From Candidatus Latescibacterota bacterium (GTDB taxonomy: Bacteria > Latescibacterota > UBA2968 > UBA8231), in assembly GCA_965203355.1 (NCBI GenBank), contig OZ241889.1, forward strand, positions 3,040,001 to 3,104,000: a DNA stretch of 64,000 nt, in the 5' to 3' direction. The notes under the pieces are model-generated. The model had not been told where the DNA came from, ran no database searches, and was given only the letters and a program-made list of their open reading frames with translations. The position numbers and the translations under genes are program-made. Below are positions 54,543-61,756 of the stretch, in pieces (position 1 is the first letter of the stretch; each line of letters opens with the position of its first letter).

Positions 54543-56168
54543 ATGATAGGCATTGTGTTCAAAAAAGAGATGCTCAGCCACCTGCTGAGTCAGCGCTTCG
54601 CCGCCTGCACGGCCCTCGCCGTGATACTCATCATCGCCAACGGCATGCTGACCAGCCAAGCCTATGTCCACAAAAAGGCCAGTTACCTAACCCAACGCGC
54701 CGTCGAGGAAGCCAAACTGCCCGAAATCACCTACTATTCAGTCTTAGGCTCAGACTTCGACAACTCCGACAAGTCCCCACTCCTCGACGATGCGACCCCG
54801 CGTGCGCTACGGCCTCCGCGGCCCCTCGCGGTGTTTGCCGAAGGCGTCGAACCCGAAGTTGGGCACGCCGTCAAGGTCCTGCTCTTTGAGGTGCCCCACC
54901 AAACCGAGGCCATTGTCCCCTTCCAGTCAAAAAACCCCTATCTCAACATCTTCGCCTCCTTCGACACCTTGTACATCTTCCAACTCGTGCTGGGGCTGCT
55001 GGCCATCCTCATCGCCAGCGAGACCGTCTCCGGCGAGAAGGAAGCCGGCACCCTGCGCCTGATGCTGACCACCAACGTCAGCCGCGCCCAAGTCCTCGCG
55101 GGCAAGCTGCTGGCCGGCCTGACCACCTTGGCCATTCCCGCGGCCTTGGGCTTTATCCTGCTGACGATCTTGCTGTTGGGCACCGAGCAGATTGAAGTTG
55201 GGCTGGACGTGTGGCTGCGGTTGGGGTTGTTGTTCGCGCTGTCGCTCTTGTATCTGCTGGTGTTCTATCTGATTGGACTGGTCATCTCCTGCGCGACGCA
55301 CCGCTCGGCGACCAGTTTGATTTACGCGCTGTTTATGTGGGCGGTGCTGGCGATTGTGCTGCCCGACAGCATCACGGCTTGGCTCAACGAACAGGCTAAC
55401 ATGGGTGAAAAGTACAAGCAGGCGCACCATCGCGCCGCGCAAGTATGGGATAAGTTCGATCAAGAGGTCCTTGACCTCGTGCGGGCGCACGGCCCAACCC
55501 CGACGACCAAAGCGGCTGGCGAAGACGATATGACCCTTGGCCCCGGCCAGAACCGGTATCCTCCCATACACATGCTCGAACGGTTCAAGCACCCGCGCTA
55601 CGGAGCCAAAAGTGTCTTTGGAGGACCTGGCGTATACCATAGAAAAAAAGAGCAGCGGCCCACGTTCTATTTATCTAGTATCGTCGATACGCCGGCCCTG
55701 GCCGAGTTCCAAGCCATCCTCCGCACCGGCGAGCGACTGCGCCTGAAATACGCCCAACCCGCTTGGAACGCCAAAGCACCCCTGATCGAAGACGACCCCC
55801 GACGCATCCAACGATGGAATACCTACCTCCAACGCCTCCTGCCCGCCGGAGCCTATGCCCAAGCCGCCAGTGCATTCGCCGGCACCAGCCGACGCGAATA
55901 CTACGACTTTATCGACCAAGTACGCGCCTATCGCGGGCAGATTATCACCTTTCTCGAAGAGCGCGATGCCTTTGGCTCCCGCGAGTGGTTCAACGACGAC
56001 GATGGCTGGCGCGCCGACCTGCGCGACCTGCCGAGATTTAACGAGCGCGGCTGGACCGTCGGCCAAAGTCTGAGCCACGCCTGGCCGGACTTAACCGCCC
56101 TATTGCTGTATGCGGTCAGCCTCTTTGTTCTGGCCAACCGACTCTTTGCCCGATACGACGCCCAGTGA
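54543..56168 (+). CDS. ABC-2-type permease with large extracytoplasmic loops, copy 1
   Basis: IVFKKE, SGEKEAGTLRLML...SR..VLAGK motif and multiple TM helices. AGGAG RBS. Confidence 0.85.
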   Translation: MIGIVFKKEMLSHLLSQRFAACTALAVILIIANGMLTSQAYVHKKASYLTQRAVEEAKLPEITYYSVLGSDFDNSDKSPLLDDATPRALRPPRPLAVFAEGVEPEVGHAVKVLLFEVPHQTEAIVPFQSKNPYLNIFASFDTLYIFQLVLGLLAILIASETVSGEKEAGTLRLMLTTNVSRAQVLAGKLLAGLTTLAIPAALGFILLTILLLGTEQIEVGLDVWLRLGLLFALSLLYLLVFYLIGLVISCATHRSATSLIYALFMWAVLAIVLPDSITAWLNEQANMGEKYKQAHHRAAQVWDKFDQEVLDLVRAHGPTPTTKAAGEDDMTLGPGQNRYPPIHMLERFKHPRYGAKSVFGGPGVYHRKKEQRPTFYLSSIVDTPALAEFQAILRTGERLRLKYAQPAWNAKAPLIEDDPRRIQRWNTYLQRLLPAGAYAQAASAFAGTSRREYYDFIDQVRAYRGQIITFLEERDAFGSREWFNDDDGWRADLRDLPRFNERGWTVGQSLSHAWPDLTALLLYAVSLFVLANRLFARYDAQ

Positions 56169-56186
56169 GCGGAATCCTATAACCAT

Positions 56187-56220
56187 AAAGCGGGCAGCCG
56201 GTCTATGGCTGCCCGCTTTT
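56187..56220 (+). terminator. intrinsic terminator after permease 1
   Basis: aaagcgggcagcc-ggtctat-ggctgcccgctttt. Confidence 0.7.
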
Positions 56221-56311
56221 GTGTACCCGGCCACCCCGTTCCCGACACGCCAAGTAGCAAAGCCCGTCCCCGGCAAGGGCGGCCGGCTAGCGGAACCCGA
56301 CCGGCGCATCA

Positions 56312-59035: not shown

Positions 59036-59153
59036 CCAGCCTTCAGGAGCGGCTGGCCTAAGCCACTCAACCCCCAACCCAACGCGCCCCGGAATAGTCG
59101 CTGAAACGCCGCTATTCCGGGGCCACTCAACCCAAACTCAGAAAAGGGATAAA

Positions 59154-59975
59154 ATGAAAACGTTGCTTTTCACCCTAAGCACCGCTTGGTTGGCCACCAG
59201 CGTCGCAGCCGAGCCGAAAGCCCAGTACGGCGGCTACTCCTTCACCGACCCCGCCAGCATCCAAGCCTCTATCCAAGCCTTTTCAGCCTATGTCAACAGC
59301 TTGGAGATGATAAACGTCGAGGCCGGCGACCCGTTGCAGCAGGCCATCGCCGCCATCCCCGTCAAGGCAAGCACCCCCATCACACCCGCCCAAGAAGCCG
59401 ACCTACGCACTTGGCTCTACGACTTCTTAGTCGCTTTTTCGGGGGCCAGCAGCGACAGCCTCGCCGCCGCGTTCTACCTTCGCGAGGGCGTCAACAACCC
59501 CGAACAGATAGAGAAGTTAAAAAACGATCTTGCAAACAAGGGCCTCCTACAAGGCGATACGCCTTTTGACATCCTCAAAGCCGGACACCGGCAACTCCTC
59601 GACAAGAATGGATACGATTACTACTTCGGCAAGGTATCCTTTGCCAACAGCGCGTTTGAGGTGGCCGAAAGGCAGACCAAGCTCAGCCCTTATATCAGGT
59701 ACCTCGTGGAGAACGGCATGATTCCACCCGGGAGCGTGTACAGCAACGAGTCCAAAATGAAGAGCGAGGTTCAAGATCACCTCCAAGCTGGCCAACCGCA
59801 GACCTTGGCCGAGGTCATGCTCATCGTCGAAGAGCCCGAGGAAGTTGCCGCCCTAGAAGGGGCGCACATCCCGTTCTTCTTTCGCATGGCTTGGGACCCA
59901 AACAAGGCTATGTGGCGCCATGTAGAGGTCGTTTACTGCCGCGGGACATCGTATTTTCTGTTCCCTTACATTTAG
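59154..59975 (+). CDS. exported protein, family A paralog 2
   Basis: Signal peptide MKTLLFTLSTAWLATSVAA followed by family A motifs. Confidence 0.8.
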   Translation: MKTLLFTLSTAWLATSVAAEPKAQYGGYSFTDPASIQASIQAFSAYVNSLEMINVEAGDPLQQAIAAIPVKASTPITPAQEADLRTWLYDFLVAFSGASSDSLAAAFYLREGVNNPEQIEKLKNDLANKGLLQGDTPFDILKAGHRQLLDKNGYDYYFGKVSFANSAFEVAERQTKLSPYIRYLVENGMIPPGSVYSNESKMKSEVQDHLQAGQPQTLAEVMLIVEEPEEVAALEGAHIPFFFRMAWDPNKAMWRHVEVVYCRGTSYFLFPYI

Positions 59976-60118
59976 GTCAATCCTTTCGGCCCCCGTCGGT
60001 TTTCACGAGCGTTATGGCAAGGTGCAGCCCGACGAGGTAGCCGAGAAGCCCTGCTGATGCGCCATCTAGCTTGGGCAACCGAGCCATGCGCCTTGCACCC
60101 ATAAATAGGAGCCGATCC

Positions 60119-61756
60119 ATGATAGGCATTGTGTTCAAAAAAGAGATGCTCAGCCACCTGCTGAGTCAGCGCTTCGCCGCCTGCACCGCCCTCGCCGTGA
60201 TACTCATCATCGCCAACGGCATGCTGACCAGCCAAGCCTATGTCCACAAAAAGGCCAGTTACCTCACCCAACGCGCCGTCGAGGAAACCAAACTGCCCGA
60301 AATCACCTACTATTCAGTCTTAGGCTCAGACTTCAACCACTCCAGCAAGTCGCCACTCAATGACGAGGCGGCCCCGCGTGTTCTACGGCCTCCGCGCCCC
60401 CTCGCGGTGTTTGCCGAAGGCGTCGAACCTGAGATCGGACAAGCCGTCAAGGTCCTGCTCTTTGAGGTGCCCCACCAAACCGAGGCCATTGTCCCCTTCC
60501 AGTCAAAAAACCCCTACCTCAACATCTTCGCCTCCTTCGACACCCTGTACATCTTCCAACTCGTGCTGGGGCTGCTGGCCATCCTCATCGCCAGCGAGAC
60601 CGTCTCCGGCGAGAAGGAAGACGGCACCCTGCGCCTGATGCTGACCACCAACGTCAGCCGCGCCCAAGTCCTCGTCGGCAAGTTGCTGGCCGGCCTGACC
60701 ACCTTGGCCATTCCCGCGGCCTTGGGCTTTATCCTGCTGACGATCTTGCTGTTGGGCACCGAGCAGATTGAAGTTGGGCTGGACGTGTGGCTGCGGTTGG
60801 GGCTGCTGTTCGCGCTGTCGCTCTTGTATCTGCTGGTGTTCTATCTGATTGGACTGGTCATCTCCTGCGCGACGCACCGCTCGGCGACCAGTTTGATTTA
60901 CGCGCTGTTTATGTGGGCGGTGCTGGCGATTGTGCTGCCCGACAGCATCACGGCTTGGCTCAACGAACAGGCCAACATGGGTGAAAAGTACAAGCAGGCG
61001 CACCATCGCGCCGCGCAAATATGGGATAAGTTCGATCAGGAGGTCCTTGACCTCGTGCGGGCGCAGGGCCCAACCCCGACGACCAAAGCGGCTGGCGAAG
61101 ACGATATGCCCCTTGGCCCCATGGGGATGTTCGGCCAGAACCGATATCCTCCCATACACATGCTCGAGCGGTCCAAGCACCCGCGCTACGGACAAATAAG
61201 TGTCCCTGGAGGACCTGGCGTATACCATGCATTAAATGAGCAGAGTACCCCGTTCTATTTATCTGAAATCGTCGATACGCCGGCCCTGGCCGAGTTCCAA
61301 GCCATCCTCCGCACCGGCGAGCGGCTGCGCCTGAAATACGCCCAACCCGCTTGGAACGCCAAAGCACCCCTGATCGAAGACCTCCCCCGACGCATCCAAC
61401 GATGGAATGCCTACCTCCAACGCCTCCTGCCCGCCGGAGCCTACGCCCAAGCCGCCAGCGCATTCGCCGGCACCAGCCGACGCGAATACTACGACTTTAT
61501 CGACCAAGTTCGCGCCTATCGCGGGCAGATTATCACCTTTCTCGAAGAGCGCGATGCCTTTGGCTCCCGCGAGTGGTTCAACGACGACGATGGCTGGCGC
61601 GCCGACCTGCGCGACCTGCCGAGATTTAACGAGCGCGGCTGGACCGTCGGCCAAAGTCTGAGCCACGCCTGGCCGGACTTAACCGCCCTATTGCTGTATG
61701 CGGTCAGCCTCTTTGTCCTGGCCAACCGACTCTTTGCCCGATACGACGCCCAGTGA
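60119..61756 (+). CDS. ABC-2-type permease, copy 3
   Basis: Near-identical to copies 1 and 2 except in two loop windows. Confidence 0.85.
   Translation: MIGIVFKKEMLSHLLSQRFAACTALAVILIIANGMLTSQAYVHKKASYLTQRAVEETKLPEITYYSVLGSDFNHSSKSPLNDEAAPRVLRPPRPLAVFAEGVEPEIGQAVKVLLFEVPHQTEAIVPFQSKNPYLNIFASFDTLYIFQLVLGLLAILIASETVSGEKEDGTLRLMLTTNVSRAQVLVGKLLAGLTTLAIPAALGFILLTILLLGTEQIEVGLDVWLRLGLLFALSLLYLLVFYLIGLVISCATHRSATSLIYALFMWAVLAIVLPDSITAWLNEQANMGEKYKQAHHRAAQIWDKFDQEVLDLVRAQGPTPTTKAAGEDDMPLGPMGMFGQNRYPPIHMLERSKHPRYGQISVPGGPGVYHALNEQSTPFYLSEIVDTPALAEFQAILRTGERLRLKYAQPAWNAKAPLIEDLPRRIQRWNAYLQRLLPAGAYAQAASAFAGTSRREYYDFIDQVRAYRGQIITFLEERDAFGSREWFNDDDGWRADLRDLPRFNERGWTVGQSLSHAWPDLTALLLYAVSLFVLANRLFARYDAQ

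Follow-up and report, generated by a model that had tools for sequence, protein, structure and literature searches.

We describe a tandem gene array in a stretch of 64,000 nucleotides from a Candidatus Latescibacterota bacterium (GenBank assembly GCA_965203355.1, contig OZ241889.1, positions 3,040,001 to 3,104,000; below, the 64-kb window). The array carries three genes for near-identical ABC-2 permeases of ATP-binding cassette (ABC) systems, here called A1, A2 and A3, together with genes for three small peptides with six cysteines (pep1 to pep3) and for secreted-looking proteins of about 270 amino acids (aa), the B family (Table 1). The permease copies differ mainly in two short variable windows, W1 and W2, both on the periplasmic side of the membrane.

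Table 1. Features of the array and its surroundings in the 64-kb window (TM, transmembrane segment; nt, nucleotides; GT, glycosyltransferase)
Feature	Coordinates	Strand	Remarks
A1, ABC-2 permease paralog 1	54543..56168	+	541 aa; lacks MGMF; PF12679, 98.8 bits
A2, ABC-2 permease paralog 2	57115..58752	+	545 aa; PF12679, 101.5 bits
A3, ABC-2 permease paralog 3	60119..61756	+	545 aa; PF12679, 98.7 bits
W1 of A1 (aa 66-88)	54738..54806	+	periplasmic loop TM1-TM2; A2 57310-57378, A3 60314-60382
W2 of A1 (aa 347-380)	55581..55682	+	insertion TM5-TM6; A2 58165-58266, A3 61169-61270
GPTPTTKAAGEDDMTLGP insertion	55494-55559 (A1), 58066-58143 (A2), 61070-61147 (A3)
pep1	56661..56843	+	26-aa Sec-like leader, 34-aa core, 6 Cys
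pep2	58856..59035	+	59 aa; begins 103 nt past A2; no promoter element of its own
pep3	62255..62434	+	59 aa
B0, fourth B-family member	49242..50039	+	upstream of the glycosyltransferase genes
B1, secreted-looking	59154..59975	+	variable patch ~59689-59786
B2, B1 paralog	62553..63377	+	paralogy from protein and DNA alignment
B3, 5´ part	63490..64000	+	extends past the end of the 64-kb window
Repeat units as aligned	54419-56990, 56991-59994, 59995-63400
GT2 3´ end and its copies	54419-54542 (GT2), 56991-57114 (before A2), 59995-60118 (before A3)		~120 nt
Intergenic element, ~390 nt	56173-56563, 61795-62094		between A and pep; holds promoter and upstream element
Sigma-54-type -24/-12 promoter (TGGCACGATGTTTGCA)	56505..56520	+	upstream of pep1
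Homologous sigma-54-type sites	49191-49206 (B0), 50866-50881 (GT1 fusion), 62093-62108 (pep3)
Shared upstream elements	~49020-49110, 50690-50780, 56330-56420, 61920-62010		~100-190 nt before each promoter
Sensor kinase (dCache-HAMP-HisKA) and sigma-54-dependent response regulator	45019..48602	+
GT1-type glycosyltransferase-transglutaminase-like fusion	50931..53441	+	836 aa; PF06722, PF00201, PF01841
GT2 glycosyltransferase	53428..54528	+	PF00535, 90.7 bits
Low-GC stretches	11009-14490, 1-5600		GC 0.38-0.51 against ~0.61

Variable windows of the permease copies

In a protein alignment A2 and A3 are 94% and 95% identical to A1, and a conserved ATG marks the first base of all three genes. A first-pass annotation of this DNA had described three near-identical ABC-2 permeases with their differences mainly in two windows, and the alignment bears this out. 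Fifty of 545 columns vary among the copies. Four of these are the gap left by MGMF, a 4-aa stretch that is found in A2 and A3 and lacking in A1, and 31 of the 46 substituted columns fall within the 55 of 541 columns taken up by W1 and W2 (hypergeometric p = 2e-24, computed with the limits of W1 and W2 set after the data had been seen). The clustering is far from chance. The window sequences and the absence of MGMF from copy 1 were likewise exactly as that annotation had quoted them. The extent given to each window depends on the use: W1 covers aa 66-83 of A1 as first quoted and aa 66-88 in the alignment and in the counts of nonsynonymous (pN) and synonymous (pS) differences per site, and W2 covers aa 348-379 of A1 as quoted, 352-383 in alignment numbering and aa 347-380 in the pN and pS counts. 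By the method of Nei and Gojobori, the flanks of A1 to A3 have a pN of 0.008-0.013 and a pS of 0.061-0.086. The corresponding values are 0.17-0.21 and 0.18-0.20 in W1, and 0.22-0.41 and 0.07-0.30 in W2.

The same two places stand out in the whole family. Across 121 A homologues the per-column entropy averages 0.73 bits and reaches 2.63 at aa 71-80 and 1.4-2.4 at aa 341-380, W1 and W2 being its two peaks, and both sequence and length vary there among 31 distinct A proteins from the loci of relatives. The pattern also recurs in tandem A pairs of two other lineages. In the pair at locus L002 the flanks have a pS of 0.050 and a pN of 0.003, with a pN of 0.193 in W1 and 0.178 in W2, and in the pair at locus L008 a flank pS of 0.056 goes with a W2 pN of 0.115. 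An insertion of 18-22 aa (GPTPTTKAAGEDDMTLGP, with or without MGMF) is common to A1, A2 and A3 just before W2 and is absent in 97% of the 121 homologues. A3 is identical over most of its length, W2 included, to a frameshifted gene call of another assembly.

Family, topology and fold

All three copies score far above the Pfam cut-off of 27.2 bits for PF12679 (ABC2_membrane_2), at 98.7-101.5 bits, with profile positions 3-282 of 283 stretched across A residues 5-539. They also exceed the cut-off of 25 bits for PF12040 (DUF3526), with 28.4 (A1), 26.3 (A2) and 27.7 bits (A3), in a partial match of profile positions 72-142 of 144 to A residues 423-504. Scores for the NCBIfam models of GldF (TIGR03518; 34.2-35.1 bits, cut-off 288.5) and MutG (TIGR03733; 21.6-24.8 bits, cut-off 117.2) are well under their cut-offs, and the FtsX Pfam domain has no match in the A copies. 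Hydropathy gives six transmembrane (TM) segments, at about residues 18-40, 143-163, 186-212, 224-250, 256-276 and 516-536. Lysine and arginine occur on the short loops assigned to the cytoplasm and are lacking in the short outer one, as expected from the positive-inside charge rule.

An AlphaFold2 model of A, built from an alignment of 144 sequences that included distant representatives, has a mean predicted local distance difference test (pLDDT) score of 89.7 and a predicted TM-score (pTM) of 0.89. It replaced a model from a shallow alignment of close homologues, which reached a pLDDT of 52.7 and was discarded. The only stretches of low pLDDT, aa 71-80 (56) and aa 321-380 (45-70), correspond to W1 and W2. 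NosY is the best sequence match of the A profile in the PDB (E=6.7e-18), and the model resembles it closely, with a target-normalised TM-score of 0.63-0.69 in Foldseek and, in VIA-align, a Z of 28.7 and a root-mean-square deviation of 2.7 Å over 254 of 267 residues at 22% identity. The superposition extends across model residues 1-538, with the TM core in the order of the TM segments. The glycan exporters Wzm, KpsM and TarG give Z 12.4-12.7 and MacB gives 7.9. The A core is thus a type V (NosY-like) ABC-2 permease with six TM helices, matched to TM1-TM6 of NosY, and a cytoplasmic N-terminus. It carries two periplasmic additions, a loop of about 100 residues between TM1 and TM2 and an insertion of about 240 residues between TM5 and TM6. 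W1 sits in the former and W2 in the latter, between helices 287-316 and 384-431, so that both windows are extracytoplasmic, as had been proposed at the outset. A MacB/FtsX-type (type VII) assignment was ruled out by the missing FtsX match, the six TM segments and the Z of 7.9 against 28.7 for NosY, and assignments of the A proteins as NosY orthologues or as MutG or GldF equivalogs were rejected as well.

The repeat unit and its history

In a DNA alignment of the three repeat units, identity per 100 columns is 93-100%, intergenic DNA included. It dips only at W1 (0.86-0.88), at W2 (0.66-0.82), in the mature peptide (0.78-0.94) and in one patch of B (0.69). The permease gene, the six-cysteine peptide gene and, where present, the B gene were duplicated as one block. 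Their content is not the same: B is missing from unit 1, and the intergenic element of about 390 nt that lies between A and pep in the other two is missing from unit 2. A short form without this element is seen at unit 1 in one contig of sequencing run X4. The 3´ end of the GT2 gene, which precedes A1, recurs upstream of A2 and A3 with 96% and 84% identity over a 300-nt register, and these copies show where the tandem duplication had one of its breakpoints. At locus L003 an A gene is preceded by a similar remnant of GT2.

The copies have not simply diverged since. Outside W1 and W2, sites at which two copies agree against the third fall into 28 runs, compared with 39.8 +/- 3.6 in permutations (p=0.0015); 13 consecutive sites after W1 set A3 apart, and a later block sets A2 apart. 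Such mosaic runs are impossible from a single duplication tree, and the A copies must therefore have exchanged sequence, which points to gene conversion. Flank pS is alike, at 0.05-0.09, in three independent lineages, which suits ongoing homogenisation better than three coincidentally equal duplication ages. The suggestion in the first-pass annotation that recent duplication or gene conversion keeps the flanks similar is therefore sustained, both by the mosaic runs and by the intergenic DNA, which is equally similar.

W1 and W2 behave differently from the sequence around them. The flanks are at a distance of 0.02 from their paralogs versus at least 0.09 from proteins found in other genomes. 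For W1 of A1 the distance is 0.22 to two foreign proteins and 0.26-0.30 to A2 and A3, W1 of A1 and A3 is as near to proteins of other genomes (0.22-0.30) as to the paralogs (0.26-0.30), and W2 of A2 is at a distance of 0.56 from everything. In five paralog pairs from three lineages the pN of W1 and W2 is 2-5x the flank pS, and in nine between-genome pairs it is 0.9-1.9x. We read this as flanks that evolve in concert while short islands resist; for this, either selection must favour difference or some mechanical barrier must limit conversion.

Peptides and B proteins

The peptides begin with a 26-aa leader (MKKRIISLTIGLTAFIASFLPQKAEA) that looks like a Sec-type signal with an AxA site, followed by a core of 33-34 aa with six cysteines spaced C-x3-C-x4/5-C-x8/9-C-x-C-x6/7-C. 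Among 24 distinct peptides from the 64-kb window and the loci of relatives, the leader is nearly invariant and the core is hypervariable but keeps its six cysteines. The three peptides belong to no NCBIfam family, and a protein database search with them returned 12 proteins, none of them named. The family is thus unnamed in the libraries searched.

B0 has no match in Pfam or NCBIfam, and B1 found no named family in an atlas search (best scores 0.87-0.88). The B1 and B2 genes are 94-99% identical save for one patch of about 100 nt at 0.69 (59689-59786 versus 63088-63188). Across 11 orthologues, B has two variable patches, one just past the signal peptide and one at about aa 176-205. Orthologues of B3 are 83-89% identical and lie directly upstream of a second permease gene (A´, below) in five related loci. 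A predicted complex of A2 with mature B1, both entered as alignments, scored 0.00 and 0.00, which weighs neither way on binding.

Promoters and upstream genes

Four sigma-54-type sites in the 64-kb window fit TGGCAC-N5-TTGCA with 0-1 mismatch, and in related loci the motif has 14 of 14 matches on the gene strand, several of them just upstream of pep genes. The shared elements farther upstream hold repeated GCGATGATTAG(A/T)CGCAC-like half-sites and are likely binding sites for the adjacent regulator, which is of the NtrC type; pep2 has no such element. The positions of the promoters suggest transcripts that would begin with a peptide gene, namely pep1-A2, pep2-B1-A3 and pep3-B2-B3 and onward. 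The kinase and the sigma-54 regulator occur in the same order in seven related loci.

The GT1 fusion joins an EryCIII/UDPGT-like part to a C-terminal transglutaminase-like (papain-fold) domain; it is 75-85% conserved in relatives and overlaps the start of GT2. A gene for a CBM9-like protein lies upstream and is syntenic in relatives. The fusion and GT2 are adjacent and the peptides have a conserved leader, and no chemistry of the kind known from ribosomally synthesized and post-translationally modified peptides or glycocins can be inferred from this. Peptide glycosylation or leader cleavage by the fusion is conceivable. Of the two low-GC stretches far upstream, one encodes an AAA_21 ATPase, a MutH/restriction-like endonuclease and an N6/N4 DNA methylase, and is likely a restriction or defence island; the other encodes a dynamin-family GTPase and large open reading frames (ORFs) without a family.

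Related loci and the downstream genes

In a word-based search 155 A homologues scored at E <= 0.001; those listed, 120 in number, have 56-94% identity and often come several to a contig. An exhaustive search gave 3097 representatives at E <= 0.001, mostly permeases of about 500 aa. There are 23 related loci in genome contigs, 21 labelled Latescibacterota/Latescibacteria and two Gemmatimonadota/Gemmatimonadetes. The conserved order is CBM9 - kinase - sigma-54 regulator - (B0) - GT1 fusion - GT2 - A - pep - B - B3 - A´, with the order pep-B-B-A-A´ at other loci. The A´ gene of the relatives encodes a second ABC-2 permease, 479-481 aa long and sharing only about 25% identity with A. For six genomes that each have one type-1 locus, the lowest identity over 20 columns, compared for equivalent loops, is 0.27 in A (in W2; 0.82 overall) and 0.57 in A´ (0.86 overall).

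Past A´, in L002 and L006/L026, there follow genes for a DUF1573 protein, a TPR protein, a 503-aa NEW3-domain protein, a TolC-family outer-membrane efflux protein and a 240-aa ABC ATPase of the DrrA/ABC-2 type. A single ATPase ends the A cluster in five of five complete relatives (Latescibacterota by their record titles), which have 1, 3, 3, 3 and 4 close A copies (>=72% identity, full length). One ATPase thus appears to serve several A permeases. The ATPase of the cluster (L026, 7961-8683, and genomes G001-G005) is 92-100% identical across the five genomes, in which A is only 72-87% identical, and most of the five have a second near-identical ATPase copy at another A-like locus. The first-pass annotation had reported no ABC ATPase in the 64-kb window, and PF00005 (ABC_tran) is indeed found in none of the 44 ORFs scanned there, most likely because the window ends inside B3.

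Discussion

One reading of these data, which we prefer and hold tentatively, is that an envelope machine under sigma-54 control is shared by the A copies, each of which serves it as an alternative specificity subunit. The inner-membrane subunit of this ABC-2 (type V, NosY-like) machine would be present in tandem as the paralogs A1 to A3, each pairing with the shared A´, ATPase and outer-membrane duct and each showing a different surface to the periplasm. This surface may handle products of the same cassettes, namely the disulfide-rich peptides exported by Sec, the B proteins or both. These could in this way be expelled through the outer membrane, or the producer could be protected. Gene conversion would homogenise the flanks, and selection would hold the short windows distinct. 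Several observations weigh against this. The genes expected past base 64000, namely A´, the TolC-like gene and the ATPase, are known from relatives alone. The number of peptides is not always tied to that of A, in that a peptide gene is lost from one unit at L003 and two A genes stand beside a single peptide gene at L008. W1 and W2 are low-confidence coil with insertions and deletions, as unconstrained loops would look. Within them pN/pS is roughly neutral overall, at 0.4-3.3 in the five paralog pairs and 0.35-1.7 in the nine between-genome pairs.

Covariation gives no help to the proposal either. A Mantel test on 12 units, from 10 loci and the 64-kb window, finds no correlation of the A windows with the cores of the linked peptides (r=0.10, p=0.21) or with the peptide once flank distance is controlled (partial r=-0.18, p=0.89), and in 11 units the variable windows of A and of B are likewise uncorrelated (r=0.105, p=0.25); the tests use p-distances, with W1 and W2 saturated and few units, and have low power. 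The claim of the first-pass annotation that the loops match the linked peptide hence finds no support here, in a result that is not decisive. B windows and peptides are also uncorrelated in the 11 A-pep-B units (r=0.086, p=0.27). Flank distance does follow peptide distance among the 12 A-pep units (r=0.37, p=0.0035), and in 11 units flank follows flank (r=0.56, p=0.001) and W1 follows W2 (r=0.31, p=0.04; partial 0.25, p=0.07). Within the array the two orders disagree, the closest peptides being those of pep1 and pep2 (0.26) and the closest loops those of A1 and A3 (0.31). The cognate peptide is itself ambiguous, as the duplicated block is A-pep-(B) and the promoters imply transcripts that begin with pep.

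The rival that deserves most attention is that W1 and W2 are unconstrained, drifting periplasmic loops in proteins that are otherwise young or homogenised, with three copies that are redundant, perhaps a matter of gene dosage, and windows that specify nothing. We consider it rather doubtful. It agrees with the values of pN, which are mostly close to those of pS (in W1 among the three copies, and in W2 with between-genome ratios of 0.35-1.7), with the frequent changes of window length across the 31 proteins, with a pLDDT of 45-56 at W1 and W2, and with the lack of covariation with peptide or B. Neutral loops should not, however, out-diverge neutral sites in their flanks, and the excess of window pN over flank pS in five paralog pairs of three lineages therefore speaks against drift. 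Islands of 70-100 nt within flanks that exchange sequence should moreover be carried along by the exchange if nothing opposes this, an island pattern of the same kind is seen in the peptide core and in B of the same repeat, and the loops of A´ are far less variable in the same genomes. Diversifying selection, as put forward in the first-pass annotation, is accordingly suggestive only: the pN of the windows is high relative to flank pS in the paralogs, but the comparison within W1 and W2, in paralog and between-genome pairs, shows no robust excess of pN over pS. Positive selection on some codons of W1 and W2 is plausible.

ABC-2 permeases of the Wzm/Wzt and KpsMT types are glycan exporters, and the machine might likewise export a glycan or glycoconjugate made by the glycosyltransferases of the locus, with loops that track variable glycans and with peptides and B proteins that are unrelated or accessory. 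The GT1 fusion and GT2 directly upstream, conserved with A in relatives, the syntenic CBM9-like protein and the fold shared with Wzm, KpsM and TarG are consistent with this. It is nonetheless improbable, as the duplicated block joins A to a peptide gene and not to a glycosyltransferase gene, the peptide genes have their own sigma-54 promoters, NosY is much nearer in fold than the glycan exporters, and the 44 scanned ORFs include no polymerase, flippase or sugar-nucleotide genes. Surface variation that evades recognition by a phage or host, also raised in the first-pass annotation, would account for multi-copy genes with hypervariable, outward-facing loops. We regard it as very unlikely: the TolC-family gene in the locus of relatives implies an outer membrane that shields the periplasmic loops, and all copies stand in one co-oriented array with no sign of switching. 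Sharply bounded patches in otherwise identical DNA could also arise by targeted hypermutation, from a diversity-generating retroelement or similar, or in an assembly that strings strain variants together, and both are highly unlikely. The substitutions in W1 and W2 are of every type and adenines stand at only 11-13 of the 44 variable W2 columns in each copy, so that a retroelement-type mutator is not indicated. The windows also vary in length, there is no reverse transcriptase among the 44 scanned ORFs, and no fourth, template-like copy occurs in the 64-kb window; with only three copies as well, a retroelement target was rejected. Against an artefact, the units differ in content, contigs from three sequencing runs connect 56982 back to sequence of the 54400 type, which a tandem array would predict, and relatives carry the same tandem arrays. 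The contigs examined, from four runs, are short and end within the repeats.

Parts of the proposed machine have counterparts in known systems. NosY, from NosDFY(L) (PDB 7o0y and related), shares PF12679 with A and is its best match in the PDB by sequence and fold. It is smaller, with 267-276 residues against 541-545, the difference lying in about 100 extra residues between TM1 and TM2 and about 240 between TM5 and TM6. There is no NosD-, NosL- or NosZ-like gene among the 44 ORFs of the 64-kb window, and there are no nosD, nosF, nosL or nosZ neighbours downstream in the relatives. We know of no NosY that is a tandem multi-copy gene with hypervariable loops. According to a study of NosF2Y2, that complex uses ATP to switch which periplasmic partner proteins bind (PMC13685413), a mode that would suit variable periplasmic loops. 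In MacAB-TolC, the ABC pump, which has a large periplasmic domain, works with a TolC duct to expel enterotoxin STII, a small disulfide-bonded peptide exported by Sec, from the periplasm (PMC5985334). The same logic would suit a locus that combines six-cysteine peptides of Sec type with an ABC machine and a TolC-like gene. MacB, with four TM segments and the type VII fold, is unlike the six-TM A, and no adaptor of the MacA/HlyD type was recognised in the loci of relatives.

Lantibiotic immunity offers another comparison. LanFEG with LanI (MutG or NisFEG with NisI) and BceAB are peptide-specific ABC-2 permeases that occur, with a secreted or lipid-anchored protein, beside a peptide gene, and BceB paralogs have variable extracellular domains. 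The ATPase of the relatives matches a nucleotide-binding domain model for lantibiotic protection with E=2e-43, under the cut-off of that model. Unlike these systems, A scores far under the cut-off for MutG, the peptides have Sec-type leaders and six cysteines, no lanthionine enzymes are seen, and the organism appears to have an outer membrane. The peptides themselves are reminiscent of conotoxin-like families, in which a conserved signal precedes a hypervariable cysteine framework. Unlike conotoxins, they are bacterial, are encoded in operons with a transporter and are known here from genes alone. According to a review on sponge peptides, a conserved leader with a hypervariable core is the mark of bioactive peptide precursors, and sponges are a known source of three-disulfide peptides (PMC12426817); a link of the present family to such peptides is speculation.

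A broader reading, which we think unlikely, is that the cassette comprises three hypervariable, co-diversifying parts, namely a six-cysteine peptide acting as toxin or signal, a periplasmic B protein and a plug-in permease A, on a shared chassis of A´, ATPase and TolC-like protein. Conversion would maintain the parts that contact the chassis, and selection would keep the recognition patches apart. If so, the ABC machine would be modular, its specificity subunits exchangeable, and would serve a bacterial arsenal of conotoxin-like peptides, and the locus could be a bacterial gene source of cysteine-bridged peptides like those isolated from sponges.

ABC-2 permeases are generally regarded as uniform membrane parts. 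The tandem arrangement of specificity-subunit-like permeases beside one ATPase, the design of an identical frame with a variable patch in three co-duplicated genes, and the unnamed family of six-cysteine peptides with a conserved leader, are new. No mention of DUF3526 and no account of such a locus was found in the literature searched, and the Latescibacterota passages of one paper from a search on this phylum and bacteriocins do not describe it. If the loops set specificity, the array would be a natural case of exchangeable recognition subunits on an ABC machine, and a clean bacterial case of gene conversion with protected islands. For this uncultured phylum, the peptide family is a lead for new disulfide-rich peptides and for secretion or resistance in diderm bacteria.

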